From a virus: 64,000 nt of DNA. The notes beneath the pieces were generated by a model, which was given only the letters and a program-made list of their open reading frames with translations, had not been told where the DNA came from and searched no databases. Within the stretch, counting starts at the first letter, position 1; each line of letters starts with the position of its first letter. The DNA lies in IMG/VR virus record IMGVR_UViG_3300042398_000319, positions 12,947-76,946 of that record. One strand, 5' to 3'. The position numbers and the translations under genes are program-made. Below are positions 10,864 through 56,488 of the stretch, piece by piece.

Positions 10864-10905
10864 AAAAAGTGAGAAAAATGACGTATCTATAATGAAGAAA
10901 TATCA
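10864..10905 (+). promoter_or_regulatory. 42-bp direct repeat copy 1; putative early (class A) promoter
   Basis: AAAAAGTGAGAAAAATGACGTATCTATAATGAAGAAATATCA, identical to 11070-11111. Lies right after a terminator and upstream of an ORF. Confidence 0.65.
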
Positions 10906-10946
10906 TAATGATAGAGTACTCAATTTAATAACTTTGAAAGATATTC

Positions 10947-11069
10947 ATGACACATGTAGATAAACTGGTTATGGCTCTTGGTAATCGCATCCCTAATTCT
11001 CGAAGATTAGCTTTAAAGGACTTAACTCCTGCTGCTATTAATCGTTTATTTAGGATGAAAAATACCTAG
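10947..11069 (+). CDS. Small hypothetical early protein (40 aa)
   Basis: ATG..TAG frame (MTHVDKLVMALGNR...) filling the space between the two 42-bp repeats; too short for the ORF track. Confidence 0.45.
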   Translation: MTHVDKLVMALGNRIPNSRRLALKDLTPAAINRLFRMKNT

Positions 11070-11111
11070 AAAAAGTGAGAAAAATGACGTATCTATAATG
11101 AAGAAATATCA
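11070..11111 (+). promoter_or_regulatory. 42-bp direct repeat copy 2; putative early (class A) promoter
   Basis: Identical to 10864-10905. Similarity continues imperfectly (AGTACTCAATTTA) towards the RBS of 11156. Confidence 0.65.
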
Positions 11112-11155
11112 ATAAAGATAAAGTACTCAATTTAGTAAACTTAAGGAAAGTTAAA

Positions 11156-11419
11156 ATGTTAAAAGTATTAATTGCAGTGTCTATTGCATTATTGTCTAGT
11201 ACCGCCATGGCATCTAAACATGAAAAGTATGTAGATATGTTAATAGAAGAAGGAGTTTTTAAAGTAGAAGAAAAGGCTAAAGTTATCTGTCAAATGGATG
11301 CTTTAGAGGCTTCATTCTATGCTTTCGATAAGGAATTAAAGAAAGCAAAAGACCCCTTTGCTGTTAAACCAGTAGATCCCTACAAGGTTATAGCAGTATG
11401 TAATAAGAAACACAACTGA
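11156..11419 (+). CDS. Hypothetical exported protein (signal peptide)
   Basis: MLKVLIAVSIALLSSTAMA resembles a signal peptide; AAGGA RBS. Confidence 0.65.
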   Translation: MLKVLIAVSIALLSSTAMASKHEKYVDMLIEEGVFKVEEKAKVICQMDALEASFYAFDKELKKAKDPFAVKPVDPYKVIAVCNKKHN

Positions 11420-11461
11420 TGAGTCTTTATGAGACGAAACCGCTGAGAAGCGGTCTTGTGT
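11410..11461 (+). ncRNA. Hammerhead ribozyme (type I topology)
   Basis: Stem I ACACAA/TTGTGT; core CTGATGA (11416-11422); stem II GTCT/AGAC; GAA; stem III ACCGCT-GAGA-AGCGGT; GUC cleavage triplet at 11453-11455. Confidence 0.93.
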
Positions 11462-11488
11462 ATTTTCCCCTTAACTATGGAGTTTAAA

Positions 11489-11977
11489 ATGAAAAAGTTC
11501 TTGATCGCAGTGTCTTTAAGTGTTGCCGCAGTATCCTCTTTTGCAGAAGAATCTTTCTGTAAACATAAAGAAGTACTTAAGGTAGGCACTTATGGTGCAT
11601 TAGCAGGTGCAGCAGCATCTTTGTTAATCCCTGGTGCAGGTCCAGTAATTGCTACAAGTATTCTTACAGGTACAGTAGTAACTACAGGTAATGTAGCAGT
11701 GTGTGCGTTTGATGAGAAGGATCGTAAGGACAAATTAGCTGCATTCAAAAAAGCTAACTCTGAACCTACATCTTTTGATAAAGCAGTGGCTAAGCCTGTA
11801 GAAGATCGTAGCATAACTGATAAAGCTGTAATCAGCCTTACTCAGGACTACGTCAATGCAGTTGTTAAGCCAGTAGAAGATCGTAGTATTAAAGAGCAAG
11901 CAGTTGTTACAATTTCACAAGGCTACACAAAAGCCCAAGAAAGTGTATCAAAAGCTTACAGTAACCTTACTAAATAA
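11489..11977 (+). CDS. Hypothetical exported/membrane protein with glycine-zipper-like segment and internal repeat
   Basis: GGAG RBS before ATG 11489; MKKFLIAVSLSVAAVSSFA signal peptide; GALAGAAA; duplicated AVxKPVEDRSI. Confidence 0.65.
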   Translation: MKKFLIAVSLSVAAVSSFAEESFCKHKEVLKVGTYGALAGAAASLLIPGAGPVIATSILTGTVVTTGNVAVCAFDEKDRKDKLAAFKKANSEPTSFDKAVAKPVEDRSITDKAVISLTQDYVNAVVKPVEDRSIKEQAVVTISQGYTKAQESVSKAYSNLTK

Positions 11978-12201
11978 GAGGATATATGTCAGAAACTTTC
12001 TTTGATATGGTATTGGCGGTTATAATTGCACTTGTGCTTGTACTCGCTATTCTTCACGGTTTGGATGCATTAATTTACTAAGGATCTGTTATGACATACT
12101 TTGTTTATAACAAAAAAGGTTATTTGATTACAACTACTACAAGTGTAGAAGAACTGAATAAGTTCCTACCTGAACTAGTAGATGTAATTATTTACTAATC
12201 C

Positions 12202-12276
12202 TTCTCGGATAGAGAGACCCTCCAGGGTATGTACTGGACTTTCTCAGCAGAGAGACCTCTTGGGGTAAGTACCAAG
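12202..12276 (+). ncRNA. Tandem pair of hairpin + H-type pseudoknot elements
   Basis: Two units of TTCTC-loop-GAGAG-ACC-Y-[5 nt]-GGT-AWGTA-[5 nt complement]; the second stem covaries (TCCAG/CTGGA versus CTTGG/CCAAG). Confidence 0.55.
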
Positions 12277-12299
12277 TTCTTTTAATTTTTGGAGTTAAA

Positions 12300-12545
12300 A
12301 TGAGTAAATTTCTTTTGTTAAACCCGCTGTATGGAGATAACTTCGGAATTACAGCGCAAGAAATTATTGAATCATTAGAGGAATTTGGTCTTACCTACAT
12401 CTTCTCAAATGACACTAAAGGTATACCGGCAATTTATGCCACAAGTAGATCTAAAGAGTTAATTGAAAGAATGTGTAATGAAGTACAACTTGATGGTTCT
12501 ATCATCGAGTTTACTACAATCTATGACCAAGTAATCGAGGATTAA
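12300..12545 (+). CDS. Hypothetical protein
   Basis: ORF with GGAG RBS. Confidence 0.6.
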   Translation: MSKFLLLNPLYGDNFGITAQEIIESLEEFGLTYIFSNDTKGIPAIYATSRSKELIERMCNEVQLDGSIIEFTTIYDQVIED

Positions 12546-12548
12546 ATA

Positions 12549-12803
12549 ATGCCTAGACTAACTTTAAAAGCTGGTGATTATACCATTGAAGCCGTTCAGT
12601 ACAATGCCTTTGACTCTGTTGAAGTAACTGTATATGATGACTTCTTACAAGCTGTAGTATCTCCTAAATTGTATGATGTTAAATCAGCATACATGACTGG
12701 AGAAAGTGTAGCTTCTGTTCTTACAGAATCTGCGGAAGATTTCCGTAGAATCTTTAAAGCAGTTGAAGATCTAGTCTTTGTAGATAAAAAACTTGGAGTT
12801 TAA
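12549..12803 (+). CDS. Hypothetical protein
   Basis: ORF with GAGG RBS, tightly packed. Confidence 0.6.
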   Translation: MPRLTLKAGDYTIEAVQYNAFDSVEVTVYDDFLQAVVSPKLYDVKSAYMTGESVASVLTESAEDFRRIFKAVEDLVFVDKKLGV

Positions 12804-12804
12804 A

Positions 12805-13059
12805 ATGTGCAATAAATGCTTATTTAATCCTTCACCAGTTAACATTTCAGATGAAGAAGGTTATGTTTATCAAGTTGGTAAAGAGATCTACAATTATGTT
12901 AAGGCTAAACACGAGCCACATTCTTTAGATTTCTTTAATCATGTTGGTAAGGAACTTGATCTCTGGAAAGCTAACCCTTTAGCAAATGTCAATCAACGAT
13001 TTAAGAGAATTGGTCATGTCAACACAATCAGGTACAGCGGGAAAGTCCAAGAAGTATAA
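12805..13059 (+). CDS. Hypothetical protein
   Basis: ATG 12805 after GGAG; tightly packed. Confidence 0.55.
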   Translation: MCNKCLFNPSPVNISDEEGYVYQVGKEIYNYVKAKHEPHSLDFFNHVGKELDLWKANPLANVNQRFKRIGHVNTIRYSGKVQEV

Positions 13060-13216
13060 CATATTTCAAATTCTACTTGTAGAATGGTTTATGTACTTCG
13101 TAATACTAGTACTACTAGATGGAGACACTAACAGCATGGAGGAATGTGCTGGTGGTGCTTTCATGTTGTTAGCGCTAATACGAGGCTTCCTTTTTATAAA
13201 GAAACAGAAATCTTGA

Positions 13217-13249
13217 ACTCCCTGCCAGCGGGAGTATAATCTAGCTGGC
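13217..13249 (+). ncRNA. H-type RNA pseudoknot upstream of the RNAP-1 gene
   Basis: S1 ACTCCC/GGGAGT, L1 = T, S2 GCCAGC/GCTGGC, L3 = ATAATCTA, followed by a T-run. Confidence 0.6.
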
Positions 13250-13360
13250 TTTTCTTATCAAAAATAATAATAACAATAAAGGTATTTATGAACGTTTGGA
13301 AAGCATGTCTTATTGTAGGTTTAATTTATCTAGCACGTAAAGTTGTAACTTACATGGAGA

Positions 13361-15562
13361 ATGCGGAAGCAGAATAAAGGAATGACTATAGTTAATAATA
13401 TATTAGAGAATTTAGTTTCAGATCTTAGAAAAAGACAAGCAGTCTTAAGATCAGATCGTAATATTTACACGCATTATCTTAAAGAAGTAGACCCTACTAC
13501 TCTAGTTGATGTATCGTATCCACACATATTACGAGGTTTAGAAAGACAAGCTACTCTAGTAGATATTGTAGCCACCATTGGTCGAAGAGTAAGGCAAATG
13601 CTTAATCTTCCTAATGATACTGTGTCAGATGCACAGGTTGGTTGGTTCATATGTATTGCTTATATTGAGTGTAATATCCTTACATTCCGATTAAAGTATA
13701 CCTATAAGAATGGAAAGAAAAGTAAATACAAAGCTTACTTCCTACAGGTTAAAGACTGGAAGGCAATTGAACAACTCTGGAGTTTAATTGACCAAAGTAA
13801 AGTAGATATCTTTCCATTAAGAGAACAGACTAAGCCTTGGACATCTGCATTTAATGTTAATGGTTCACCCATTATTAAGAAAGGCCACCCTAGTGCACTG
13901 TCAAAGTTTAGGACTTCAGACAAGCAAGCATTGTTTGATACTCTAAATAAATTACAAGCTATTGGATGGCGAATTAACAAGGATGTGTTTACTGTGTATC
14001 AGCACTTTTTACATAATCCTTGTCACAATAGCCCTTTCAAGTTACACACAGAGATTGATGAAGAGAAGAAACAATCACTTTTGATTGAAGCACAAGGCAT
14101 TGAAAGACTAGCATTAAATCATCTTGATAATGCTTTTTATCATGTCTATAACTTTGATTTCAGAGGTCGAGTTTATGTAAATACAGCGTTTCTTCACGAA
14201 CAATCTAGTGATAATGCAAAGGGCCTACTGTTGCTAGACAAATCAACACCACTAGGTGAAAACGGTCTGTTCTGGCTAAAGGTACATACGTCAAATTCTT
14301 TTGGAAATGACAAGGTGACGCTAAAGCAGAGGGCTGAGTTTGTAGATGAGAATATTAATCTATTCTTGTCATATGCAGATAAACCTACTGTTAATCAAGG
14401 ATGGATGGAAACAGATGCTCCATTTTCTTTTTTAGCTGCTTGTTATGAGCTTAAGAAAATTAAGAACTGGTTAATGGATGGTAATAACTTAGAAGATTAT
14501 CCTTGTTCTTTACCTGTATATATTGATGGTTCTAATAACGGTGTCCAGCATCTAGTTGCTATGTCACAAGATGAAGAGATTGCACCACTAGTTAATTTAG
14601 TACCACAAGATACCCCAGGTGATGTGTACATGTATATTGCTAAATACGCATGGAAACGTTTAGAGGAGCTAGCAAGTCAGCTAACACAAGAGGAACGTGA
14701 TCAATTTGATAGTGTATACAGTAAGGCTAAAGAGTTACAAAAAGCTTACTTTGATGCACCTGAAAAGAGTGAACAAAAATCCTTAGCTTATGCTGCTGCC
14801 CAAGAGTGGCGTAATCAGAATCGTTCTATTAGAGAAAAGTTGTTTGCTGTTTACTGGCTTAATATTGATAACCCAAAAGATCAACGTAAAGTAGTAAAGA
14901 GAAATGTAATGACTCTCGGTTACGGTGGTACTGCGTACGGCATGGGTCAACAAATTATTGATGATACCCGTGATATGTCTGAGTATCTTCGTGACAAGGA
15001 ACACCTCTGGGGTGCTATGTTAGGTGATTTGGTATTTGAGACTTGTTATGAAAAACTCAAAGGGCCAGCAACAATGTTACGAATGTTTCAGGACTTAGCG
15101 GATAGATCTAATAACAAAGATGTATTCCTACAATGGACTACTCCAGTAACAAACTTTCCTGTAGTTCAAGCATATAGAAAACCATCTATTGTTAGAACTA
15201 AATTAAAGTACGGTGAAGAAGAACTTAAAGTTCAACTTCAAACATGGGAAGAATCAACTATTGATAAAGATTCCCAGAGAACAGGTGCAGCACCAAATAT
15301 TGTTCACAGTTTTGATGCAGCACACTTGACTATGACTGTATTGTCTGCTCCATATGAGATGACTGTTGTTCATGATTCTTTCGGTACCCTGCCTGGAAAC
15401 ATGGATGACTTATTTTATAGAGTAAGAGATCAGTTCGTAGAGTTTTACAAGAGTAAACCTTTAGAGAAATTACTGGCTGAACTTAATTGTGAAGACCTTA
15501 TTCCTGAGAGGGGTAATCTCGATGTAAAACAAATATTGTACTCAGATTATGCTTTTTGTTAA
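13361..15562 (+). CDS. T7-like single-subunit DNA-directed RNA polymerase (RNAP-1)
   Basis: DFRGRVY; motif A PVYIDGSNNGVQH; motif B RKVVKRNVMTLGYG; APNIVHSFDAAHL; motif C VVHDSFGT. The start could be 13382. Confidence 0.96.
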   Translation: MRKQNKGMTIVNNILENLVSDLRKRQAVLRSDRNIYTHYLKEVDPTTLVDVSYPHILRGLERQATLVDIVATIGRRVRQMLNLPNDTVSDAQVGWFICIAYIECNILTFRLKYTYKNGKKSKYKAYFLQVKDWKAIEQLWSLIDQSKVDIFPLREQTKPWTSAFNVNGSPIIKKGHPSALSKFRTSDKQALFDTLNKLQAIGWRINKDVFTVYQHFLHNPCHNSPFKLHTEIDEEKKQSLLIEAQGIERLALNHLDNAFYHVYNFDFRGRVYVNTAFLHEQSSDNAKGLLLLDKSTPLGENGLFWLKVHTSNSFGNDKVTLKQRAEFVDENINLFLSYADKPTVNQGWMETDAPFSFLAACYELKKIKNWLMDGNNLEDYPCSLPVYIDGSNNGVQHLVAMSQDEEIAPLVNLVPQDTPGDVYMYIAKYAWKRLEELASQLTQEERDQFDSVYSKAKELQKAYFDAPEKSEQKSLAYAAAQEWRNQNRSIREKLFAVYWLNIDNPKDQRKVVKRNVMTLGYGGTAYGMGQQIIDDTRDMSEYLRDKEHLWGAMLGDLVFETCYEKLKGPATMLRMFQDLADRSNNKDVFLQWTTPVTNFPVVQAYRKPSIVRTKLKYGEEELKVQLQTWEESTIDKDSQRTGAAPNIVHSFDAAHLTMTVLSAPYEMTVVHDSFGTLPGNMDDLFYRVRDQFVEFYKSKPLEKLLAELNCEDLIPERGNLDVKQILYSDYAFC

Positions 15563-15566
15563 GTTT

Positions 15567-15583
15567 ACCAGGGTACGCTAAAG
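15567..15583 (+). promoter_or_regulatory. Putative phage RNAP promoter (class B)
   Basis: ACCAGGGTACGCTAAAG; matches 38929, 39551 and 56472; intergenic, upstream of the replication block. Confidence 0.75.
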
Positions 15584-15589
15584 CACAAT

Positions 15590-15619
15590 GGTATGCATTT
15601 TTGTGATGTATACCTTTTT
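15590..15619 (+). terminator. Hairpin + T-run after the RNAP-1 gene (possible early terminator)
   Basis: GGTATGCAT-ttttgtg-ATGTATACC-TTTTT. Confidence 0.55.
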
Positions 15620-15658
15620 ATTAAAAATTGGAAATTAAAAGTAAGGAACTAAAAAGCT

Positions 15659-16165
15659 ATGGCTATTTTGAAAAATGTTGAGTTATTCTACCCACGTCTT
15701 GATCCCAAGAAACCAAATGCTCGATTTAATAAAGAGCAACCTACATGGGAAGTTCAGATTCGAACTCGAGACAAGAAAGTTAAAAATGAGTGGGCTGCAC
15801 TCAACTTGAAGCCTAAGACTGTAGAAGATGATGACGGTAAGGTATTTTATTCTGTTACTCTTCGCAAGAAGTCTAAAAAGAAAGATGGTGAAGTTAATCA
15901 ACCTGTAAAGGTTATTGACGGTGGCCTAAATGATATTAACCCAATGAGCATTGGTAATGGCTCAATTGGTAATGTCCGTATCTTTCAATATGAGTATGGT
16001 GATGAGAAAAAGATTGCCTCTATGTTGATGGCAGTTCAAATTACTAAACTTAACGAGTACATTCCAAAGGCATCTGATGATGAATTTGAAATGACTGAGA
16101 CAGAGATTGTCCGTGTAGCAGATGCTGACGGTGGTGACGATGATGAGGATGACAATCCTTATTAA
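15659..16165 (+). CDS. Single-stranded DNA-binding protein (T7 gp2.5-like)
   Basis: OB-fold-like sequence (IGNGSIGNV; LMAVQITKL) and an acidic tail ending in an aromatic residue (DDEDDNPY); first gene of the replication block. Confidence 0.8.
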   Translation: MAILKNVELFYPRLDPKKPNARFNKEQPTWEVQIRTRDKKVKNEWAALNLKPKTVEDDDGKVFYSVTLRKKSKKKDGEVNQPVKVIDGGLNDINPMSIGNGSIGNVRIFQYEYGDEKKIASMLMAVQITKLNEYIPKASDDEFEMTETEIVRVADADGGDDDEDDNPY

Positions 16166-16172
16166 TTAAATT

Positions 16173-16196
16173 TAGGGGACTTCGGTCTCCTATTTT
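16173..16196 (+). terminator. Intrinsic terminator after SSB
   Basis: TAGGGGAC-TTCG-GTCTCCTA-TTTT. Confidence 0.75.
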
Positions 16197-16211
16197 ATCA
16201 AAGGAAATTAA

Positions 16212-16391
16212 ATGGCAAATATTATTGCAGGTTTAGTTGGTATAGCTGTTGTAGTAGCCTCTATCTACGGATGGATTGCAAACTTTATAGCTATATTAGC
16301 AATGAATGCTGATACCCCATTAGGTTGGGTTATTGGTCGTATTATCGGTGTCTTTGTACCCTTTATTGGAGCAATTCTTGGTTACTTCTGA
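16212..16391 (+). CDS. Small membrane protein (59 aa)
   Basis: AAGGA RBS; MANIIAGLVGIAVVVASIYGW..., two hydrophobic segments; not in the ORF track. Confidence 0.6.
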   Translation: MANIIAGLVGIAVVVASIYGWIANFIAILAMNADTPLGWVIGRIIGVFVPFIGAILGYF

Positions 16392-16620
16392 ATACACGCT
16401 GACGTTCACTGATCCTATTAGTGAATTTGAAATGCTTCTCTTATGTAAACTTGGAGATGACTTTTCATACAATAAAGACTTTACTGTCTGCACAATTGAA
16501 ACCCCAATGAGTGAAAGAGAATTCCTTAAAGAAGTCTCTGAAATTACTGTAGTAGAAAATATTGGGTTAATTCAGCATTTAGTAACAATGGAACCCGATT
16601 GGTTAACTTATAATTCATAA
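16333..16620 (+). CDS. Hypothetical protein (true start probably downstream)
   Basis: ORF ends with a TAATG overlap into the next gene. Confidence 0.4.
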   Translation: MVVLSVSLYPLLEQFLVTSEYTLTFTDPISEFEMLLLCKLGDDFSYNKDFTVCTIETPMSEREFLKEVSEITVVENIGLIQHLVTMEPDWLTYNS

Positions 16621-16919
16621 TGATTGCATATAAACTTTTTAAGAAAAGAAAAGATGGTACTTATGGACCATTGTTTATTAATCGAAAACAGAAAATACAA
16701 TCAGGTGTATTGTATGGGGCAGAGTCTCATCCTACTGTAGGTTATGCCTATCGTCCGGGATGGCATTGCTGCTCCACACCTAATGCACCACACTTGAGCC
16801 TTAAAAATAGAGTATGGTGTAAGATTGAAATTCAAGACTATACAAGACATCAACGACCTGAAAGTCAAGGTGGTCTCTGGTATACAGCAAATTATATGCG
16901 TATTCTAGGAGAACTATGA
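16620..16919 (+). CDS. Hypothetical phage protein
   Basis: Translationally coupled ORF; RPGWHCC motif. Confidence 0.6.
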   Translation: MIAYKLFKKRKDGTYGPLFINRKQKIQSGVLYGAESHPTVGYAYRPGWHCCSTPNAPHLSLKNRVWCKIEIQDYTRHQRPESQGGLWYTANYMRILGEL

Positions 16920-17185
16920 GTAACTTAAACCAACTTGCTAAAGATTACTGGAATGATGAACTTGAATGTGAAGTAATTGAAGAGGGTGACTGGGTTAATG
17001 ATTTCAAAGACTATTACTTTCGTATAGATATCATTAAGTATCAAGACAAATATTATCGAATTAGTATGAAAAGAACTGGAAGTTATTATACTGAATACTT
17101 CTTCAATGAAGATAGCTTTGTAGCAGAAGAAGTAACTAAAGTTGAAAAAGTAGTAACAGTAACATCATGGGAACGTGTAAAATGA
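16916..17185 (+). CDS. Hypothetical protein
   Basis: ATGA overlap; AGGAG RBS. Confidence 0.6.
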   Translation: MSNLNQLAKDYWNDELECEVIEEGDWVNDFKDYYFRIDIIKYQDKYYRISMKRTGSYYTEYFFNEDSFVAEEVTKVEKVVTVTSWERVK

Positions 17186-17595
17186 AACAACGAACAATCT
17201 ACCTTGCAGGTCCAATGGAACACGTATCGCTTGACGATGCAAAAGGTTGGCGTGATATTGCTACTCAATTACTTAAGCAAGCAGATCAAAAAGTTCTTGA
17301 TCCTACTCGTAGGGTTCATGAGTTTCAACCGAAGTACATGAAGAGAATCTTTGAACTAGATCTTCGTGATATTCAAGAGTCAGACTTGATTCTTGTTAAT
17401 TTAGACAATCCTAAAATTGCTAAACACGGTACTTCAATGGAAGTGTTTTATGCTTCTTATGTACTACGTAAACCAGTAATTGCATTTAAAGCGGATGCCT
17501 CTACTATTCATCCATTTTTTGAATCTTTAGTAACTGAATGGAGATCAACAGTAGATAAAGCCTGTGACACTATTATCACGGAGTATATCGAGTAA
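17182..17595 (+). CDS. Nucleoside 2-deoxyribosyltransferase-like protein / nucleotide N-glycosidase
   Basis: IYLAGPM...DLRDIQESDLILV...GTSME pattern of the NDT family. Confidence 0.75.
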   Translation: MKQRTIYLAGPMEHVSLDDAKGWRDIATQLLKQADQKVLDPTRRVHEFQPKYMKRIFELDLRDIQESDLILVNLDNPKIAKHGTSMEVFYASYVLRKPVIAFKADASTIHPFFESLVTEWRSTVDKACDTIITEYIE

Positions 17596-17786
17596 TGCCA
17601 TTCTTTGTTACTTACGTAGATCCTGATGATGAGAATATAGAGCATAATATTCCTATTAGTAAAGCAACTCAGGAGTGCGTTTTTACTAGTTTAAAACAAG
17701 TAGCAGTTAAAGTGAGAGATGTTAAAGCTCACTATCCAAAATTAAAAGTTAGGGTTTATCATGCAAGCCTTTGGGAAGAAAATTAA
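17595..17786 (+). CDS. Hypothetical protein
   Basis: Coupled ORF. Confidence 0.5.
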   Translation: MPFFVTYVDPDDENIEHNIPISKATQECVFTSLKQVAVKVRDVKAHYPKLKVRVYHASLWEEN

Positions 17787-18049: not shown

Positions 18050-18211
18050 TGAAATTCACAGTAACCACAGTAAAAGAAAATGAAGACGGTAGTGCTAATG
18101 TTGTTCTAGACTTAGATAATGAAGCACGAGAGTATTTACTAAATTATGCCTTCATCCATATGATGAAAGATGCAATTGCTGAAGGTCAACTTTATCAGGT
18201 AAAGGATTAAA

Positions 18212-23400: not shown

Positions 23401-23574
23401 TGAGATTAATTGGTTTTGTATTTGGTTTATGTTCTCTGGGAGTTCTTCTCACACAGGCTATAAACTTATTGTCAACAGATGTATGGGGTTCATCAGATTT
23501 TTTGTTAATGTCTGTAGCCCTCAGTTTTATTTCAACAGGTTGTTTTGCAGTTAATAAGGTATTAAACAATTAAA

Positions 23575-27417: not shown

Positions 27418-27418
27418 T

Positions 27419-39542: not shown

Positions 39543-39550
39543 GAAAAAAT

Positions 39551-48328: not shown

Positions 48329-51300
48329 ATGCCAACACCAATTAATACAGATCTTTATGATCGTATTATACAACACTTGGCTGATACAAGGCTATACGAG
48401 GCGGAAACCTCTACTAATGTAAGTAGGGGCATCCGTAGACATCAAAAAAGACTTAGAGATTTACTAAAGTCTAATATTAAAGCTGATGTTAAACCAGAAG
48501 TTACAAGGGCTACTCGTGAATTACACATGATAGTTGATAACTCTGTTACTGATTATGCAGGAGCAGCAGTTAACTTCCATTCTAATAACCTAGATAGAAG
48601 TGCAGGTAACTTTTTTAGGGTTCAAAGGCCTAGAGCTAGTGACGCTATTCCTAAACTAATTGGACCTAATATCAGTGCCTCTAAAACACTTAGAGAACAT
48701 TTTGATACAATTGGTACAGCTGAATTAGCTAGAATTGATGGAAAAATTAAGTTAGGCCTGGCTGATGGTAAATCAACTAAACAAATCTTGGATGAGGTAA
48801 TTCGTACTACTGCGCTTACTGAAGTACAGGCTAAGGTTCTTGTTAGAACAGCAATTACCAATACTCAATCTACTGCAATGAATTTAGTAATGAGTCGTAA
48901 TGAAGAGCTATTAATTGGTTACAGATTTACTGCTGTTCTTGACAATCGTACTTCTCCTATTTGTGCACACCACGATGGTCAGGTATATAAGATTAATGAT
49001 TTAAGGTTTAGGCCCCCACTTCACTGGAACTGTCGTAGTTCTATGGTTCCTATTCTAAAGAATAAAGAACAACTACTAAAATCTCTTGAAGAGAAAGAGG
49101 ATAGTAGACTTAAAGCTAATAAATTAAAAGAAACAAATCCAACATTACTTGATGGTAACCCACCTCCAGTAGAAACCTATAGTATTTGGCTTAAACGTCA
49201 ACCTATGGCTGTGCAGGTTAAGCATTTAGGCAGTGAAGAAAAAGCTGGACTTTTACAGAAAGGTGCACTAGAGGTAAAGGCGTTTACTACTGCTAAAGGT
49301 CAACAGCTAAGTATTGCGGCATTAAGAAAGCTTGATAATGCAAGAACACTGTGGTTTCCAACTAGACAAACTGCTGTATCTAAGGCTGAAGAAAACTTAT
49401 TTCAGCTTAATGTAGCTAGACCTAATGAGTTACTACGAAATACAGAGGCTCAAAGACAATTAAGAGAGATGTATATAGCTGACTCAGATAATGTGGCTCA
49501 AGCTATTTCTTTGACAGACTATCGTGGTACTACACTAGCAGGTAAACGATCAGTTAGGATTAGATCTAACAATGAGTTTGATGAACGTAACAATAGCTTT
49601 GATCCATTTACTGGTGAACAAAGTTCTACACTATTGTATGATCCTGACTATATTACACTTCAAGAACGACTTGACTTTGTTAAGAACTCAAAGGCTTTAT
49701 CACAAGATCAAAAAGTTTGGATCAGAGACTTTGTGGAGAGTCTTGATGAGTCAGTATCTGTTAATCAACAAACCGCTGTAGCTGAAAATCTTCGTGTTGT
49801 GTTTGAACGATACAACAATAACAAAGAACCTTGGGTTAACTTCATGAACGTTGTTCGTGGAGAGATGCAGTACTCTGTTGTTAATACTAGTCGTATTCTT
49901 GATCGTAGGTCTAGAGCTAGATCTCAACAGTTTGACTCTTATGGGGTTGCCGGTGAGCCAGCTAAAGTCCAGATCTTTGGTAGATACTACACGTTTGATG
50001 AAATTACAAATAACACACTGTTAAACCAAAGATATAAAGAATCATGGGAAACTCGTCTTGGTAGACCTCTAGCCCGTAGACTTCTTTACACTGGACGTAC
50101 CCCTCTTTATACATGGTTTAGAGGTCCGCTAACTAGGGATACAAAATCTTTTAGTAAACGACTTGAAACATTTGTCAGAGAAGAAATTCCGGGTGGAGCT
50201 TTATGGCTAGATCGTAATAAACCAAAAGAAGGTTTAATTGCACAGTTTATTAGAGAAAAGAAAGAAAGCTGGAGAAGAATTCTAGATTTAGAATTTTTGT
50301 ACAAAGGTAATAAACAAAGTTATCTACAGCAATATATTGAAAACAAAACAAATGATAAGTTTATTGTTGATGCATTATCAAGGGTAATTAGCGTTGTAGC
50401 AGATGGTAAATCTACTGACTATGACACATTGGCAATTAACATTGGTAAAGAACTAAGAAGCAACTGGAAGTATCCAGAGTTTCCTTTCTTTAAATCAACA
50501 TTAAAAGATTATCATGAGGATGGCTCACAAATTTTAACTGCGTTAAGAGACTCAGGTTATATTAGAGTAGTTAAAAGAGGTAAGACGAGAAGATCAGTTG
50601 TAGACCTAGAGACAGGTCGTGCAAGTGGTCCGTGGAGGGATACTATCAGCCGTGAAGTTCAAATTCTAAATAAAGATATGCTTGATCTTCAACGGGTTAA
50701 TAGGTCATTGATTGTAAGTCAACGTATAGGTATTGTAAACGATAGAGACCGACTCTTTGTTAGGCCTGGACAGAAAACTTATTTTGATGCTAGAGGTAGA
50801 AATACTGGGATCCCTATTATTACCCGTAGAGCTAATGCTAACTATGATAAGATACTAATTGATAATGATTTTGCTAATATGCTTAATCATACTATGGCTA
50901 CTAAATACGAAGTTGATAATGAATATGCTGGATTCATGGAAGATGTTGTGCGCTTTAGAGATCCCCGTGGGAATGTAAAGAAGTATGATGACTTAAATGA
51001 CTTTAGAAAACTTATTTTAACTCGTGGTGATCAAGGCTATAGTTTTATACAAACTGTAAAGTATCATCGAGACAATGGAAAACCATTTAGCGTTGTTGCT
51101 AATATCGATGGTCGTGGTCGTGTATACTACCAAGGCTTCTTAACACCTACTGGTGGTGAAGTTGTTCGTCCATTCTTAAATACTGTTAAAGCAGAGGCTG
51201 TTACACCTGAGATTGTTCAAGAGTTAATGATTCAAACTGGTTCCATGATTGGTCCAGCTACTGAAGCGTTAACACAAGCAGGTCGTATGGAAATCTTTAT

Positions 51301-52750
51301 GAGGAATCAAAAAGAAGTTCTTAGCTTAGGTAGATTAATGAGAGAAACAACACAACGTGATAGACGTATTAGAGAGTTCTTAGAACATCCTTTAATTAGA
51401 GCGCAAGATGCTGAAGAGATTCCAAAGATCTCTAGACTAGCTATTGAGTATGCTCGGATATATGATCATGTTGGTGGCGACTTTACTAATACTAAAAAGT
51501 TAGCGACATATAAAACAAAACTAATGATTGAGAATGATGCTTCATCTTCTGGTGCTCAAATCATTGGATTAAGTACTGGGGATAGGGATATTTCAATCAA
51601 CTCAAATGTATTACCTACATTACAAAAGAATCGTTTGTATGACTTGGTAGCTATGGATACAGTGTCTGATCCAGAGTTCCAAAAGATACAGGGATTAAGA
51701 GATGCCAATATTCAGTGGACTGATTTGCAAAAAGCAGCTAAGGCACAGAATATGGTTTCTTTCTATGGTGCAGGTAAGGCAACACAAGCAGCTAATATTG
51801 AAGCTAAATTTGCTTCAGTGTTAGAGACAAAAGGATATACTGTTGTTACCCGTGAAGAACTTCGTGGAGTAACTAATATTATAGATGCAAAGATCAAAGA
51901 AGCAGATAAGCTAGGAGCTGACAATGTTGTATTTGGTCTCAAACAATTAAAACGTGAGTTGAACGAAGTTGTTGAAGGTGAAACCTCTGTGGGGCAAGAA
52001 CTTTTAGCACACGCTCGTGATTCTCACCCAGACGTAGAAGCGTTTGTCGATAAGTTAATGAATGCTCGTAAAGGACTAATTGGTCCTCAAGACTTTAAAG
52101 CAGTATCAGAGATTATGTCTCGGAGACTAGCTGAGAGAGCACCAGTAACTCAAAAGTTCGTACAATTCTGGAAAGAAGCTGCTAAAGCTTACGTTGATGA
52201 AACTCAAAAGGTCGATGTGCCTTGGGTAACATTTGATGGTAAGACTTTATACCAGAGATACAGACCTAAAATCCAAACTAGCATTGAATTCTTTGATAAA
52301 GAAGCTGGTAGGATGGTCCGTAACATTTACGAAGATCGAGCAGAAGATGCTTCACTTCTTGGAAAATCAAGCCTGATGAGGGCAGGTATTGGCATGGGGG
52401 TTAATGGTAACCACATGAACGATGCTACTATTGTAAGAAGATTCCACTTATGGGGTCGTAAAAATGGTGTTGAAACCGCAACTATTCATGATGCGTTCTT
52501 CACAAACATCGGACTTGCAGCAAAGTCCAAAGCAGCCCTTAGAGAAATCTATGCGGATGCTTTAGAAGGTGACACAATAGAGAAAACATTACTGGCACTG
52601 AAGACTGAAGGTCTGTCTAACAAGACATACAAACAGCTTCGCCAAAAGGCTATTGAGGATGGCTTAATTAATCCTCGCAACAAAATTACGAGAAAAGATA
52701 TACTAGCTCCTATACCTAAAGGTATGGATTGGTATGGTATTGGACCGTAA
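48329..52750 (+). CDS. MuF / SPP1 gp7-like minor head protein fused to a T7-family RNA polymerase (RNAP-2, putative virion RNAP)
   Basis: N-terminal LVRTA...FTAVLDNRTSPICAHHDG...PPLHWNCRS (MuF). C-terminal DGRGRVY, motif A ENDASSSGAQ, motif B KAQNMVSFYG, NGNHMNDA, motif C TIHDAF. Confidence 0.9.
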   Translation: MPTPINTDLYDRIIQHLADTRLYEAETSTNVSRGIRRHQKRLRDLLKSNIKADVKPEVTRATRELHMIVDNSVTDYAGAAVNFHSNNLDRSAGNFFRVQRPRASDAIPKLIGPNISASKTLREHFDTIGTAELARIDGKIKLGLADGKSTKQILDEVIRTTALTEVQAKVLVRTAITNTQSTAMNLVMSRNEELLIGYRFTAVLDNRTSPICAHHDGQVYKINDLRFRPPLHWNCRSSMVPILKNKEQLLKSLEEKEDSRLKANKLKETNPTLLDGNPPPVETYSIWLKRQPMAVQVKHLGSEEKAGLLQKGALEVKAFTTAKGQQLSIAALRKLDNARTLWFPTRQTAVSKAEENLFQLNVARPNELLRNTEAQRQLREMYIADSDNVAQAISLTDYRGTTLAGKRSVRIRSNNEFDERNNSFDPFTGEQSSTLLYDPDYITLQERLDFVKNSKALSQDQKVWIRDFVESLDESVSVNQQTAVAENLRVVFERYNNNKEPWVNFMNVVRGEMQYSVVNTSRILDRRSRARSQQFDSYGVAGEPAKVQIFGRYYTFDEITNNTLLNQRYKESWETRLGRPLARRLLYTGRTPLYTWFRGPLTRDTKSFSKRLETFVREEIPGGALWLDRNKPKEGLIAQFIREKKESWRRILDLEFLYKGNKQSYLQQYIENKTNDKFIVDALSRVISVVADGKSTDYDTLAINIGKELRSNWKYPEFPFFKSTLKDYHEDGSQILTALRDSGYIRVVKRGKTRRSVVDLETGRASGPWRDTISREVQILNKDMLDLQRVNRSLIVSQRIGIVNDRDRLFVRPGQKTYFDARGRNTGIPIITRRANANYDKILIDNDFANMLNHTMATKYEVDNEYAGFMEDVVRFRDPRGNVKKYDDLNDFRKLILTRGDQGYSFIQTVKYHRDNGKPFSVVANIDGRGRVYYQGFLTPTGGEVVRPFLNTVKAEAVTPEIVQELMIQTGSMIGPATEALTQAGRMEIFMRNQKEVLSLGRLMRETTQRDRRIREFLEHPLIRAQDAEEIPKISRLAIEYARIYDHVGGDFTNTKKLATYKTKLMIENDASSSGAQIIGLSTGDRDISINSNVLPTLQKNRLYDLVAMDTVSDPEFQKIQGLRDANIQWTDLQKAAKAQNMVSFYGAGKATQAANIEAKFASVLETKGYTVVTREELRGVTNIIDAKIKEADKLGADNVVFGLKQLKRELNEVVEGETSVGQELLAHARDSHPDVEAFVDKLMNARKGLIGPQDFKAVSEIMSRRLAERAPVTQKFVQFWKEAAKAYVDETQKVDVPWVTFDGKTLYQRYRPKIQTSIEFFDKEAGRMVRNIYEDRAEDASLLGKSSLMRAGIGMGVNGNHMNDATIVRRFHLWGRKNGVETATIHDAFFTNIGLAAKSKAALREIYADALEGDTIEKTLLALKTEGLSNKTYKQLRQKAIEDGLINPRNKITRKDILAPIPKGMDWYGIGP

Positions 52751-52816
52751 GAGTTTAAGTTTGTAACTAAACCCTAAAAAATTAAAATTAAATGGCTGTG
52801 CCAAAGGAAAACAAAG

Positions 52817-53512
52817 ATGAAAGTAGATAAGTTCGGAAACAAAGAGTTCCTCGATGATGGTACCACACCTAACCCAGAGTTTCAAGCCGATCAGGTTGAT
52901 ACTGGTGGAGGCGGTGCTAGTAATAAAGAGACAGAAGACATGATCAATCGTTTGGTTGAAGAGCGTCTTGCTAAAGTCAAACAAAGTTTAGATAAAGCAT
53001 ACCAAGAGCGTGATGCTGCCGTAAGGGAGCGTGTTCGTTTAGAAGATGAAGCTAAACAACGTAAGATGAAGTCTTTAGAGGACGAAGGTAAGCATAAAGA
53101 AGTTGCCGAGATGAAGCTCGCAGAACTCACTGAGAAGCTTGCGTTGGCCGAAAGCAAAGTAACTGAACTCACTAGAGATGGTGCAGTTCGTAATGCATTA
53201 ACTAACCTTGATTTCCGTAATGACCGATCTAGTCAAATGGCTTATCGTGATATTATCGATCAACTCATCCAAGATCCAGAGACTGGTGCATGGATTCATA
53301 AATCAGGTGTATCAATCAAAGATTTTGTAGGACAATATGTGAAGAATGAAGATAATTCCTTCCTATTTAAACCTAAATCTAATTCAGGGGGTGGTAGTAA
53401 CAATATGAACGGTACTCCCAAACTCGATCCCAACAAGAAGATTACTGAAATGACCACTGAAGAAGTGTTAGCACTTGCTGCAGGTGGAAAGCTTGGTAGC
53501 TTCACCTTTTAA
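52817..53512 (+). CDS. Capsid scaffolding protein
   Basis: Coiled coil; FLFKPKSNSGGGS; immediately upstream of the major capsid gene. Confidence 0.8.
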   Translation: MKVDKFGNKEFLDDGTTPNPEFQADQVDTGGGGASNKETEDMINRLVEERLAKVKQSLDKAYQERDAAVRERVRLEDEAKQRKMKSLEDEGKHKEVAEMKLAELTEKLALAESKVTELTRDGAVRNALTNLDFRNDRSSQMAYRDIIDQLIQDPETGAWIHKSGVSIKDFVGQYVKNEDNSFLFKPKSNSGGGSNNMNGTPKLDPNKKITEMTTEEVLALAAGGKLGSFTF

Positions 53513-53531: not shown

Positions 53532-54623
53532 ATGATTAATCATACAATGTTCCAAAACGTAGCTATTGCTATTTCTGCATATGCTGACGAAATGTACACA
53601 ACTGCCAAGAAGCTTAACAGCACTGGTATCGTTGGTACTGATGCCCGTATTGACCCAACAGGCGAGAGCTTTATTGGTCAAATGCGCTGGTACAAGCCTT
53701 TGGCAGCTAACATTAACGTTGCTAGCCTCTCTGTCGCCAATGCAGGTACTTACACTGACGTGTCTACCGAAATTGCTGACTACATTAAGACAGTTCGTAC
53801 CTTCGGTTCTGAGCAAGTTAACCTCCAACAAGTTGTTTCACAACAAGATGGTCTCTCTAAAATTGCTCGTGATTTCTCTGAAGTTCGTAGCCAAGACGAG
53901 TCTGATGCCGTTGTTGCTACCCTCAAGGGTGTAGCTGCATACGAAGTAGCTCGTGGTGCTGGTATCGTTGGTTATGACACCGATGCTGATGGTGCTACAA
54001 CTGGTAACTTCGTAGATATTAATGCTGCTGGTACTTTTGGTGCTGCGGCTACCTCTGCATCTGATCAGCGTAAGTTGTTTGATGCTACAGCTATTGGTGC
54101 TGCTCGTGGCCAGCGTTTGTTCCAAGCTCTGGGTATGGCATTCAAGGACTATGAGCCAGACTTTATGTACATGATCACTTCACCAGAAGTGTTGGCTGAA
54201 CTCCGTGCCGCTAACTTGGTTGATGTTACAACTGTTACCGACGGTAACTTGACATTCCAAACCGTGTTCGGTGGTAAATTCCGTTTGATCTTGAGCCGTG
54301 TTGCTCAGGGTGATTTGTCTGCTTCTGCTAACGTGAATGACCGTTCTACAAAGACTACATTCATCTGCAAGCCAGGTGCTATCAGCTTTACAAACATTGC
54401 TGTTCCTACACCTGTTGAAGTTGATCGTTCAGCTGCCTCTTACACTGGTGGTGGTTCTACCGCTATCTGGTATCGTTATGGTTTCGTTGTGCACCCAATG
54501 GGTTACGACTGGGCTGGCGCTACCAATGCCTTTGCTAGCAATGCTAACTATGCTACTGCTGGTTCATGGGCACGTAAAATGAGCGCATTGAACTTGGGTA
54601 TTCTGCCTATTCTCCACGCTTAA
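53532..54623 (+). CDS. Major capsid protein
   Basis: 363 aa after the scaffold; strongly biased codon usage; PVEVDR...GGG...HPMGYDW coat-protein pattern. Confidence 0.88.
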   Translation: MINHTMFQNVAIAISAYADEMYTTAKKLNSTGIVGTDARIDPTGESFIGQMRWYKPLAANINVASLSVANAGTYTDVSTEIADYIKTVRTFGSEQVNLQQVVSQQDGLSKIARDFSEVRSQDESDAVVATLKGVAAYEVARGAGIVGYDTDADGATTGNFVDINAAGTFGAAATSASDQRKLFDATAIGAARGQRLFQALGMAFKDYEPDFMYMITSPEVLAELRAANLVDVTTVTDGNLTFQTVFGGKFRLILSRVAQGDLSASANVNDRSTKTTFICKPGAISFTNIAVPTPVEVDRSAASYTGGGSTAIWYRYGFVVHPMGYDWAGATNAFASNANYATAGSWARKMSALNLGILPILHA

Positions 54624-54640
54624 TCCATTAGGAGGAACTG

Positions 54641-55138
54641 ATGGCACTAGTCCTAGGTACAAACACATATGTAACTATGGTCGAAGCTGATGCATACTTT
54701 GATACTCGCATTGATGCGGGTGCATGGTTAAATGCTCAGGATGACGATCAGGAGTCAGCATTAGTGACCGCAACTCTTTTACTTGATGAAAATCAATTTA
54801 TTGGTGTTGCTGTCAGTTCCACACAGAGTCTTGCTTGGCCTCGTAAAGGGGCCTCAACTTTTGATCCTAGATTAGGACAGAGTATTACTTATAGTGAATC
54901 TGAAATTCCTAAAAGAATGAAACAAGCTGTTTTGGAGATGGCTTATCATTTGTTGTCTAATGAAAATTTGTTAGATAATAAATCTCAAAACTTTGAAGAA
55001 ATTTCTATCGGTACAATTACATTGAAAGATAGTAATAATGACACGACTAGAACTCCAGTAGTTCCTAATCTTGTCAGAAAATACCTAAAACCACTCTTAG
55101 TAAATCAAGGTTCTACTCAATGGTGGAGGGCGAATTAA
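54641..55138 (+). CDS. Head-tail adaptor (DnaT-like family)
   Basis: NTYVTMVEADAYF...QSLAWPR...IPKRMKQAVLEMA. Confidence 0.75.
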   Translation: MALVLGTNTYVTMVEADAYFDTRIDAGAWLNAQDDDQESALVTATLLLDENQFIGVAVSSTQSLAWPRKGASTFDPRLGQSITYSESEIPKRMKQAVLEMAYHLLSNENLLDNKSQNFEEISIGTITLKDSNNDTTRTPVVPNLVRKYLKPLLVNQGSTQWWRAN

Positions 55139-55483
55139 ATGTCTCTCAAATCAAAAGTACAAGGATCCGTAGATACTGCCTTTGAAAAATTAAAAGATCT
55201 ATCTGTATCTGTTACTTTTGACAATAAAATCGTTAGTGGATTTAGCTTTAGCTCTGGCTCAATAATTAAGACAGATGAGACTTATACAACCTTTGGTTTT
55301 TTAAGTACATCTAAAACTTATGAAGCTGGAATACCTGTGACAACAACATCTCTTACAATTAAGAATGATAATACAATTAATTTTAGTCGTTACTCTAGGG
55401 TAACAATTAATTCCGTTCAATACGGTTGTAATATTATTTCAAAAGATGAGTTCATTGTTGTACTCTCTTTAGCGGGAGTCTAA
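55139..55483 (+). CDS. Putative head closure protein
   Basis: Size and synteny. Confidence 0.5.
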   Translation: MSLKSKVQGSVDTAFEKLKDLSVSVTFDNKIVSGFSFSSGSIIKTDETYTTFGFLSTSKTYEAGIPVTTTSLTIKNDNTINFSRYSRVTINSVQYGCNIISKDEFIVVLSLAGV

Positions 55484-55484
55484 C

Positions 55485-55886
55485 ATGTATAATAAACTAA
55501 GAGCCGACATCTATGGAGTATTTGCTTCAACACCTTGGATTGCTACTACATATAAGACATACCCTGATAATTACAGTGGAGCTATTGATAGTTCTACTTC
55601 ATTTATTAGAGTATCTATATTACCTGGTAATTCAACAGTTGATGCTCATGGTCTTAAGAAGAAATTCTCTGGAATGCTAATTCTTTCGATCTTTGTTAAA
55701 GCAGGAAACGGTGATACTGAACTGTTCAATATTGCTGATTCAATAGACTCATTTTTCCAAGGAAAGACTTTGGCAAATGGAACCCAATTTGGTACAAGCT
55801 CTTTAATGAAGCTTGGCCTTGATCCCGCAGATAAATCTCTTTATCGTGGTGATTATTCAATAAATTTTAAAGCTTATGGAGATTAA
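55485..55886 (+). CDS. Putative tail terminator / completion protein
   Basis: Size and synteny; GMLILSIFVKAGNG pattern. Confidence 0.6.
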   Translation: MYNKLRADIYGVFASTPWIATTYKTYPDNYSGAIDSSTSFIRVSILPGNSTVDAHGLKKKFSGMLILSIFVKAGNGDTELFNIADSIDSFFQGKTLANGTQFGTSSLMKLGLDPADKSLYRGDYSINFKAYGD

Positions 55887-55891
55887 ATAAC

Positions 55892-56443
55892 ATGGCACAT
55901 ATTACATCAATTGGCGCTGGTATCTATTCTGCTCTTGCAGTTAATACTACCGCTATTACTTCTACTACTGCAGTTGATACACTTGCAGAATTGGTAGCAT
56001 TGTTTGCTGATGATACAGCATTCAAAGAAGTCAAAAACGTTCGTGAGTTCCCACAGATTGGTACTCCTGCTAACATCGTCAACGTACCAGTTTATGGTTC
56101 TAAGACATCACAGCAGATTCAAGGTCAATCTGACGCTCCTAACTTGGAAGTGACAATTAACTACATTCCTTCCGAGTGGGATCCTACCACTGTTGGTGGT
56201 CTGGGTGCTAAAGTTGGTGACGGTAAGCAGTATGCTTTCCAGTTCTCCCTCTTGAACTCTAAGCCAGCTAGCCTTGAGACCAATGCTACTGGTTTGGGCG
56301 CTACTGCCAACTCTAACTTCTACTTCGTTGGTAAGTTGGAAGCTTTGTTGGTGAGCCCACAGTTGACTGATGCTAACCAAGCAACTTTGACTCTGTCTAT
56401 TCAGAGCGAGTTCTTTGGTCCAGCTACTGTTGCTGCGGTCTAA
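55892..56443 (+). CDS. Major tail (tube) protein
   Basis: VREFPQIGTPANIVNVPVYG...QIQGQSDA; biased codon usage; followed by a terminator. Confidence 0.8.
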   Translation: MAHITSIGAGIYSALAVNTTAITSTTAVDTLAELVALFADDTAFKEVKNVREFPQIGTPANIVNVPVYGSKTSQQIQGQSDAPNLEVTINYIPSEWDPTTVGGLGAKVGDGKQYAFQFSLLNSKPASLETNATGLGATANSNFYFVGKLEALLVSPQLTDANQATLTLSIQSEFFGPATVAAV

Positions 56444-56450
56444 TTAACTT

Positions 56451-56471
56451 AGGAGGGTAATTCCTCCTTTT
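56451..56471 (+). terminator. Intrinsic terminator after the tail tube gene
   Basis: AGGAGG-gtaatt-CCTCCT-TTT. Confidence 0.65.
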
Positions 56472-56488
56472 ACCGGGGGACGCTAAAG
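56472..56488 (+). promoter_or_regulatory. Putative phage RNAP promoter (class B)
   Basis: ACCGGGGGACGCTAAAG directly after the terminator. Confidence 0.75.

Follow-up and report, generated by a model that had tools for sequence, protein, structure and literature searches.

Two T7-type RNA polymerase genes

The IMG/VR virus record IMGVR_UViG_3300042398_000319 (76,946 bp) carries a 107-bp terminal repeat and is therefore a circular assembly; its bases 12947–76946 form the window analysed here, a stretch of 64,000 nucleotides in which all long open reading frames lie on the + strand. The source is a 77-kb freshwater siphophage of the Naomiviridae type, and most of its genome lies in the window. 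Its gene content and gene order are those of the family, the head and replication modules being the same as in the roseophages DSS3_VP1 and DSS3_PM1 (Naomiviridae), its nearest isolates. The window encodes two RNA polymerases (RNAPs) of the T7 family, RNAP-1 at the end of a block of small early genes and RNAP-2 in the head operon, each 47–50% identical to its homologues in the two roseophages (best among isolates), and it contains two classes of repeated promoter-like motifs, class A and class B (Table 1). A preliminary description had arranged these parts as a transcription cascade, in which RNAP-2, packaged in the virion, would use class A to express RNAP-1, and RNAP-1 would use class B.

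Both polymerase genes were found where they had been proposed, and the differing specificity-loop peptides quoted for them are present in the two proteins. RNAP-1 matches PF00940 (E 4e-82; 277 bits, cut-off 22) and phrog_414 (E 2e-131), and its motifs FDFRGRVY, YIDGSNNGVQH, KRNVMTLGYGG, VVHDSFG and the C-terminal YAFC align with those of T7 and SP6. The T/DxxGR element, motifs A, B and C, and the C-terminal F/YAF(A/C) foot of T7-type polymerases are all present, features by which RNAP-1 is a complete, compact T7-type enzyme.

RNAP-2 is a fusion of 1473 aa. Its N-terminal part matches PF04233 (Mu F; residues 137–239, 46.4 bits, cut-off 29.6) and, over residues 4–453, phrog_241 'head morphogenesis' (E 1e-51); its C-terminal part matches PF00940 (residues 1054–1434, 27.1 bits, cut-off 22), and no other Pfam domain was found above threshold. 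A structural model of residues 450–1473 has a mean pLDDT of 67, with values mostly of 75–90 in blocks (model residues 500–860 and 910–1010), and aligns with the whole of T7 RNAP in Foldseek (E 3e-15, 900–1000 columns). T7 and mitochondrial RNAPs rank at the top, and the virion RNAP (vRNAP) of phage N4 is absent among the matches listed. In 15 homologues of 51–93% identity, D927/R929/G930/R931, D1070, K1135/K1138/Y1146/G1147 and H1387/D1388 are invariant, as are the motifs IDGRGRVY, ENDASSSGAQ (NDASSSG), KAAKAQNMVSFYGAG / KAAKAQNMVSFYG and TIHDAF (IHDAF). The C terminus differs, lacking a FAFA foot and carrying an extension of ~50 aa that ends in DWYGIGP. RNAP-2 is thus T7-type in both catalytic motifs and overall fold; judged by motifs and model together, it is a real and complete polymerase that is predicted to synthesize RNA.

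The fusion (PF04233 plus PF00940, 1450–1600 aa) recurs in at least 302 protein clusters formed at 90% identity, whose source names are only 'SPP1 gp7 family head morphogenesis protein' or 'minor head/capsid protein'. Such names would suit a structural head protein with a relic polymerase domain, with class A as the binding site of some other regulator. This explanation is very improbable given that homologues as distant as 51% identity keep every catalytic residue of T/DxxGR and motifs A, B and C unchanged, that the polymerase part is better conserved than the linker joining it to MuF, and that a full T7 fold is predicted.

The order of genes, with portal, MuF-RNAP, scaffold and major head protein in succession, puts RNAP-2 in the canonical position of SPP1 gp7 or Mu F, and by domain as well as by place after the portal its N terminus is a MuF/SPP1 gp7-type minor head protein. 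SPP1 gp7/Mu F is a known head component, and the enzymes fused to its C-terminal side are believed to enter the cell together with the DNA (PMC5512222). The MuF domain above cut-off, the head-gene order and the retention of the fusion in so many clusters mark RNAP-2 as an enzyme apparently built for packaging, and it is probably carried in the virion.

A ClpP-type protease and a second peptidase (phrog_4191) are encoded at 29050–29733 and 32363–33502, in the middle region and outside the head module; that either might process the 165-kDa fusion is raised as a possibility only. The polymerase genes of relatives are split at or near motif B by insertions of 0.5–0.95 kb. RNAP-2 is split at residues 1139–1143 in G003, G006 and EBPR siphovirus 1, where an HNH endonuclease gene is annotated, and RNAP-1 at about residues 520–530 in G003 and G007. 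The insertions lie at 8023–8801 and 52627–53372 in G003 (L081–L084), between the two RNAP-2 pieces in G006, at 41163–41644 in G007 and at 28929–29849 in EBPR siphovirus 1 (L097), a partial record in 50 kb of which no RNAP-1 homologue was found. The insertions probably represent group I introns or a different kind of homing element that targets the best-conserved catalytic codons. G003 also holds a repeated element of ~110 nt (at 8080, 17707, 27208/27741 and 52691), two copies of which coincide with insertions.

Class B promoters and their probable pairing with RNAP-1

The class B 18-mer ACCAGGGGACGCTAAAGA matches the window at 15567, 38929, 39551 and 56472 with 0–2 mismatches, all on the + strand and, as previously described, in intergenic gaps; none was expected in 100 shuffles. 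Five strong copies, all on the + strand and intergenic, occur in the 76.9-kb genome, where the tail module has the fifth at genome position 7544, ~5.4 kb ahead of the window. That class B lies only downstream of RNAP-1 is correct for the four strong sites of the window, but it must be qualified by the weak site inside the RNAP-1 gene at 14310, by a very weak one at ~21536 and by the strong copy outside the window. A weight-matrix scan of the − strand gave nothing above 8 bits.

Class B has the layout TACCAGGGGACGCTAAA-GAGAGA, with a recognition block from −17 to −5, an AT-rich segment from −4 to −1, a G at +1 and a purine-rich start, and it can be set in register with the annotated T7 +1 and with a promoter of the SP6 genome (TACCAGGGGACGC / TAAA / G(+1)AGAGA). 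The DSS3_VP1 version, TAGGTGACGTTAAAG, equals the SP6 genome sequence TAGGTGACACTATAG at 12 of 15 positions. In its length of ~23 bp, its blocks, its +1 G, its agreement with gene direction and its intergenic placement, class B has the architecture of a T7/SP6-type promoter. The copy directly behind RNAP-1 is a weaker but reproducible 'middle' variant, GGGTACGCTAAAGCAC, found in that place in more than 15 relatives, and the contrast with the 'late' variant recalls that between the weaker class II and the class III promoters of T7. Two freshwater metatranscriptome runs contained 20–27% of the sampled words and, against positions 8001–28000, gave 52 and 35 short contigs of 90–99% identity; these are assembled contigs, in which starts and strands are not visible and DNA carry-over is possible, and they carry no information on start sites.

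The assignment of class B to an enzyme rests on comparison across relatives. Class B of the form CCAGGGGACG(C/T)T(A/T)AAG is used by every genome with the RNAP-1 specificity loop R(T/A/V)KL.YG..ELK. The loop VRLKLKHNDRTLW of DSS3_VP1 goes with ATAGGTKACGTTAAAG, that of G004 (SRDVSFYYGEERIRL) with AATACTGCCGCCTAATGA, and that of G006 (KKRVQLYYGDDILKL) with AATACTTGACCCTTATGA; GGGGACG, GGTGACG and CTGCCGCC are promoter variants with matching RNAP-1 proteins. Throughout these genomes the RNAP-2 loop keeps the form QRYRPK(I/L)Q..I.F.DP..GR.V.NIY, and the class A core persists. When G000 is compared with G004, identity is ~25% in the loop of RNAP-1 and 48% over the full protein, but ~61% in the loop of RNAP-2 and 51% over its full length; class A is nearly unchanged. 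Class B therefore changes in step with the RNAP-1 loop and not with that of RNAP-2, which stays constant. The co-variation proposed as a check in the preliminary description is accordingly seen for class B, with four promoter types going with four RNAP-1 loop types, although few independent changes underlie it. Class B is very probably the promoter of RNAP-1, with a predicted start at the +1 G. Class A behaves like the more conserved RNAP-2.

Class B has two reproducible variants, GGGTACGCTAAAGCAC directly after RNAP-1 and GGGGACGCTAAAGAGAGA ahead of the late blocks. Together with the place of the RNAP-2 gene in the late head operon, this could be taken to mean that RNAP-2 is a late, non-packaged enzyme or reads the 'late' copies, leaving RNAP-1 the 'middle' variant alone and class A to the host or to RNAP-1. 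Such a division of labour is improbable. The variants differ at few positions only, as do T7 class II and III promoters, which serve one enzyme. RNAP-2, which shares 22% identity with RNAP-1 over the core, has a loop that does not resemble its counterpart and that is unchanged where class B is replaced wholesale (G004 and G006). A MuF fusion kept across the clusters would, moreover, be needless in a cytoplasmic late enzyme.

Class A motifs and the proposed start of transcription

Class A, of ~36 nt, reads AAAAAGTGAGAAAA-N7-(C/T)ATCTATAAT-(A)GAAGAA and contains an exact 29-nt repeat at 10869 and 11075 (none expected by chance). The copies described at 10864 and 11070 do stand at the start of the region leading to RNAP-1, and relatives have class A in the same place. 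The core is kept in 24 distinct sites from 18 genomes or loci of 35–47% G+C, which include all of G000–G005, DSS3_VP1 and RNAP-1-bearing loci, and a pattern scan of IMG/VR gave ~75 full sites in ~45 contigs; the sources are marine isolates and freshwater-linked contigs. Genomes have one to five copies, up to five of them in tandem, which head the early region upstream of RNAP-1 wherever gene order is readable and commonly lie right behind the late-operon terminator. Flanks beyond the 36 nt show no conservation among relatives. The conserved core and its constant place mark class A as a motif under strong selection. The GACG or ACG core said to be shared by the two classes proved a coincidence of this genome, the class A stretch in question being the variable N7 spacer in relatives (ATGATGT, ATCATGT, CTAAGGC, ACAGGGC).

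Three of the promoter sites had been placed directly after terminators. This was confirmed for two, the hairpins at 10829–10852 and 39512–39528 passing a terminator scan; the third, at 56451–56468, fails it. The same hairpin with its T run stands ahead of class A in several relatives, G001 and G002 among them. Hairpins followed by a conserved tail, TTTTTTATCAAA, were noted at 10853–10866 and 16193–16202 of the window and at 428, 1851, 1896, 4904, 18026 and 53324 of G005; with six copies in G005, the tail is possibly a phage-specific termination signal. The two-copy arrangement of the window has an extreme counterpart in the IMG/VR locus L202, where a stretch of 1.3 kb contains five class A copies in tandem, with a short stem (GATAC..GTATC or GATATA..TATATC) behind each. 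The leader stems of class A differ in sequence among relatives (GATAC/GTATC, GAAC/GTTC, GATAAA/TTTATC), and 5′ leader stems after both motif classes were set aside as evidence, their z-scores against shuffles being −1.2 to +1.2 except for the hairpin at 15590.

RNAP-1 cannot make itself, and class A must therefore be read by an enzyme present at entry, either host RNAP or a packaged polymerase. If it were the host enzyme, the σ70 holoenzyme would recognize class A through its TATAAT and express the early genes and RNAP-1, RNAP-1 would read class B, and a packaged RNAP-2 would serve in DNA pull-in, in replication priming or at unrecognised sites. The TATAAT is perfect in nearly all copies, invariant and accompanied by an A-rich upstream tract, and phages T7, phiKMV and Xp10 all begin with host RNAP. 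The remainder of the motif nonetheless fits σ70 poorly. At 16–18 nt upstream stands AAAAGT, AAAGTG or AAAAAG and no −35 hexamer; ATC precedes TATAAT where an extended −10 would have TGn; and a promoter scan found no σ70 pairing at class A. The invariant block GTGAGAAAA lies 13 nt upstream of TATAAT, where σ70 makes no contact, and both it and the ATC lack a σ70 role, yet they are kept across phages of 35–47% G+C. No other conserved motif usable by RNAP-2 was found in a search for one. The genome shows no excess of σ70-like sites (18 found versus 23 expected; 43 versus 52).

Relatives with and without the RNAP-2 polymerase domain bear on the same choice. Both RNAPs occur in all nine genomes examined that have a head module (G000–G007 and DSS3_VP1). 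In G007, whose RNAP-1 is 33% identical, no repeated promoter motif was found. The pelagiphage Kolga and the contig G009 have an RNAP-1 of 28–31% identity and a MuF protein of 605–633 aa without a polymerase domain, and no class A was found in either. Such Kolga-type phages must rely on host RNAP, and Kolga has instead a different early region, a divergent AT-rich control region with TTGACT-N15-TATAAT at σ70-type spacing. Other contigs with class A and without an RNAP-2 match (G019, G011 and others) also lack a MuF match, being fragments without a head module, and are uninformative here. At position −8 of class A, T goes with Ser at the RNAP-2 residue aligned to T7 R746 (five genomes) and C with Arg (nine genomes); the Ser/T group is a single clade with 100/100 support, so this co-variation is a single event and weak. 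Reading of class A by σ70 is, on all of this, unlikely, and RNAP-2 is the probable reader.

Each part of the two-polymerase, two-promoter cascade that lends itself to sequence comparison came out in its favour: the MuF domain, the co-variation of class B, the place and architecture of class A, and the absence of class A where RNAP-2 lacks its polymerase domain. RNAP-2 would be made late from the head operon, taken into the capsid at the portal by its MuF/SPP1-gp7 domain and ejected along with the DNA. Once inside the next host cell, it would recognize the two tandem copies of class A behind the late-operon terminator and transcribe the small early genes and the gene for RNAP-1. RNAP-1 would then recognize class B, a step for which the sequence evidence is good. 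The weaker 'middle' variant at 15567 would serve the replication and nucleotide block, and consensus copies those for lysis, head and tail, so that RNAP-1 would also make the RNAP-2 of the next virions. Host RNAP would be dispensable at every stage, and the phage probably transcribes its whole genome without it. We put the probability of the cascade as a whole, from ejected RNAP-2 through class A and RNAP-1 to class B, at about 0.6.

Several observations weigh against it. Since class A has a perfect TATAAT, its use as a host promoter that works through an A-rich upstream element and needs no −35 is still a live rival. In G006 and G007, the most distant of the two-RNAP genomes, only the CTATAAT-AGA core is recognizable, without the upstream GTGAGAAAA. 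The sole candidate for base-to-residue co-variation in RNAP-2, at −8, maps to one branch of the tree, and the contrast with Kolga-type phages is a single, distant comparison. The hairpin and T run at 15590, conserved in relatives, begins 7 nt past the predicted start of the 15567 promoter, an awkward position for a promoter that is to feed 23 kb; it may end the early transcript after the RNAP-1 gene and yet be read through by RNAP-1 itself. The papers on the isolates DSS3_VP1 and DSS3_PM1 contain no treatment of transcription or virion proteomics.

DNA of DSS3_VP1 and DSS3_PM1 has deoxyuridine (dU) in place of dT, as reported in the paper describing the Naomiviridae. The window encodes a nucleoside 2-deoxyribosyltransferase-like protein, a nucleotide kinase, a T7-like DNA polymerase and a dCMP deaminase (17167–17595, 18212–18772, 18765–20642 and 21686–22102), and no thymidylate synthase was seen among the proteins scanned. 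This toolkit is the one proposed for dU-DNA in the family, and the phage of the window may also carry uracil-DNA. A bolder reading, which is tentative and rather doubtful, is that Naomiviridae-type phages, an abundant aquatic group with dU-DNA isolates that standard metagenomics misses, are fully independent of host transcription, the host RNAP being unable to use their DNA or promoters. A T7-type polymerase would be threaded from the capsid as MuF cargo, start on U-containing class A and perhaps help to pull in the genome.

Comparison with known systems and features of the window

Delivery of an RNAP by the virion is known in N4-like podoviruses, in jumbo and crAss-like phages and in one Thermus siphovirus. 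In N4 (Schitoviridae), a virion-packaged T7-type RNAP is ejected and reads early promoters, and early genes encode a second T7-type RNAP (PMC4496689, PMC5512222), an order of events that the cascade proposed here, from sequence alone, resembles. The parts differ. The N4 vRNAP has ~3500 aa, its own N- and C-terminal regions for ejection and encapsidation, a metallopeptidase domain and no MuF, whereas RNAP-2 has 1473 aa with MuF at its N terminus. N4 is a podovirus and the phage of the window a siphovirus. N4 early promoters are DNA hairpins, whereas class A is a conserved linear sequence with no conserved hairpin upstream of the core. RNAP II of N4 has two subunits and its late genes use host RNAP, whereas RNAP-1 is a single subunit. 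RNAP-2 is therefore not an N4-like vRNAP and is likened to it in mode of working only. In a survey of packaged 'polyvalent' proteins, virion RNAP modules appeared only in N4-like phages (PMC5512222).

The phages T7, T3 and SP6 offer the closest match to the second half of the cascade, as RNAP-1 has all of their motifs and the C-terminal aromatic foot, and class B agrees with their promoters in length, layout and +1 G. The window phage differs from them in being a 77-kb siphovirus, in an RNAP-1 150 aa shorter at the N terminus, in early genes without recognizable σ70 promoters and in its second, putatively packaged polymerase. The Bacillus jumbo phages PBS2 and AR9 have uracil-DNA and both a virion and a non-virion RNAP, and are not known to need host RNAP. 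They recall the dU-DNA of the nearest isolates and the similar nucleotide toolkit of the window, but their polymerases are multisubunit and those here single-subunit.

In the Thermus phage P23-45, a virion RNAP fused to the tape measure protein recognizes a pre-early motif rich in A and T and gives rise to a second RNAP, which has its own motif, and relatives without the fusion also lack the motif (PMC10770324). P23-45 is likewise a siphovirus with a polymerase fused to a structural protein, and the logic of presence and absence is that of class A and Kolga. Its RNAPs are of the two-barrel (cellular) type and not right-hand T7-type enzymes, its carrier is the tape measure protein and not a MuF minor head protein, and its late genes use host RNAP where class B and RNAP-1 are proposed here. 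Jamet reportedly described MuF-fused effector and toxin proteins in 2017. The cargos described for such proteins are toxins, ADP-ribosyltransferases, nucleases and the like, and a T7-type RNAP is not listed among them. These proteins also join an N-terminal MuF/SPP1-gp7 domain to a C-terminal enzymatic cargo (PMC5512222).

The principle of a virion RNAP followed by a second RNAP is thus already known from N4, phiKZ/AR9 and P23-45; what is new here is the carrier, the type of virus and the promoter classes. In the literature no description of a MuF-RNA polymerase fusion or of two RNAPs in Naomiviridae was found, and RNA polymerase is mentioned neither in the text of the paper describing the family nor in a 2025 paper on its abundance. 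Were the bolder reading above to hold, the virion-RNAP strategy would have arisen independently a third time, and for the first time on a MuF carrier and in siphoviruses of ordinary size. If the cascade is true, it would add to the known cases a large aquatic family, a common minor head carrier and two enzymes that are both small single-subunit polymerases. It would also explain gene expression in the uracil-DNA Naomiviridae, correct a widespread 'head morphogenesis protein' annotation that hides a polymerase, and supply biotechnology with two new orthogonal polymerase-promoter pairs with natural specificity variants. The cultured members DSS3_VP1 and DSS3_PM1, which grow on Ruegeria pomeroyi DSS-3, make the model directly testable.

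Table 1. Features of the 64,000-nucleotide window in map order (PWM, position weight matrix).
Feature	Position	Strand	Remarks
Map block 1: tail-fibre genes			Followed by terminator 10829–10858
Intrinsic terminator closing late (tail-fibre) operon	10829–10858	+	9-bp stem, 6 G-C pairs, then TTTTTT; class A directly next
Class A copy 1, AAAAAAAGTGAGAAAAATGACGTATCTATAATGAAGAA	10862–10899	+	TATAAT 10888–10893; no −35, no TG extension
Class A copy 2	11070–11105	+	TATAAT 11094–11099
Map block 2: small early genes			Ends with RNAP-1
RNAP-1, compact T7-type single-subunit RNA polymerase	13361–15562	+	733 aa; last gene of early block
Weak class B-like site in RNAP-1 gene	14310–14327	+	3 mismatches; PWM 19 bits versus 31–44 for strong sites; kept in G002
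Class B 'middle' variant, ACCAGGGTACGCTAAAGCAC	15567–15588	+	Predicted +1 G15583; heads 23-kb replication/nucleotide module
Hairpin and T run, candidate early-transcript terminator	15590–15622	+	10-bp stem, −12.3 kcal/mol, z −3.4
Map block 3: nucleotide kinase, T7-like DNA polymerase, exonuclease, primase-helicase, ribonucleotide reductase, dCMP deaminase			
Class B before endolysin gene	38929–38950	+	0 mismatches
Map block 4: endolysin	38963–39424	+	phrog_938
Terminator ending middle/lysis block	39512–39545	+	Hairpin 39512–39528 and T17
Class B 'late' variant, ACCAGGGGACGCTAAAGAGAGA	39551–39572	+	Heads packaging/head module including RNAP-2
Map block 5: terminase, PhoH, portal, RNAP-2, scaffold, major head protein			Portal from 46660; RNAP-2 48329–52750
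Portal protein	46660–48282	+	phrog_145, E 7e-61; directly upstream of RNAP-2
RNAP-2 N-terminal part, MuF/SPP1 gp7-type minor head domain	48329–49675	+	PF04233, phrog_241
RNAP-2 C-terminal part, complete T7-type RNA polymerase by fold and motifs	49676–52750	+	Residues ~450–1473
Scaffold	52817–53512	+	phrog_206; downstream of RNAP-2, directly
Major head protein	53532–54623	+	phrog_247; follows scaffold
Weak terminator at best	56451–56471	+	6-bp hairpin AGGAGG-GTAATT-CCTCCT, TTT(T) only; abuts next promoter
Class B heading tail module	56472–56493	+	1 mismatch; PWM 38.6 bits
Map block 6: tail genes and tape measure protein			

A σ70-like site at 13213–13240, before RNAP-1, was considered and rejected, as it lies inside a conserved hairpin and T run and its −35 is not kept in G005. 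The structure in question, at 13200–13275 and ~100 nt before RNAP-1, is a nested hairpin (CTCCC..GGGAG / CCAGC..GCTGG) with a T run, also found in G005, whose loop contains TATAAT; its role is probably that of an RNA structure or attenuator and not of a promoter. Two very long tail-fibre genes within 1–10513 are built of repeated modules of 58–203 nt (families D1–D8).

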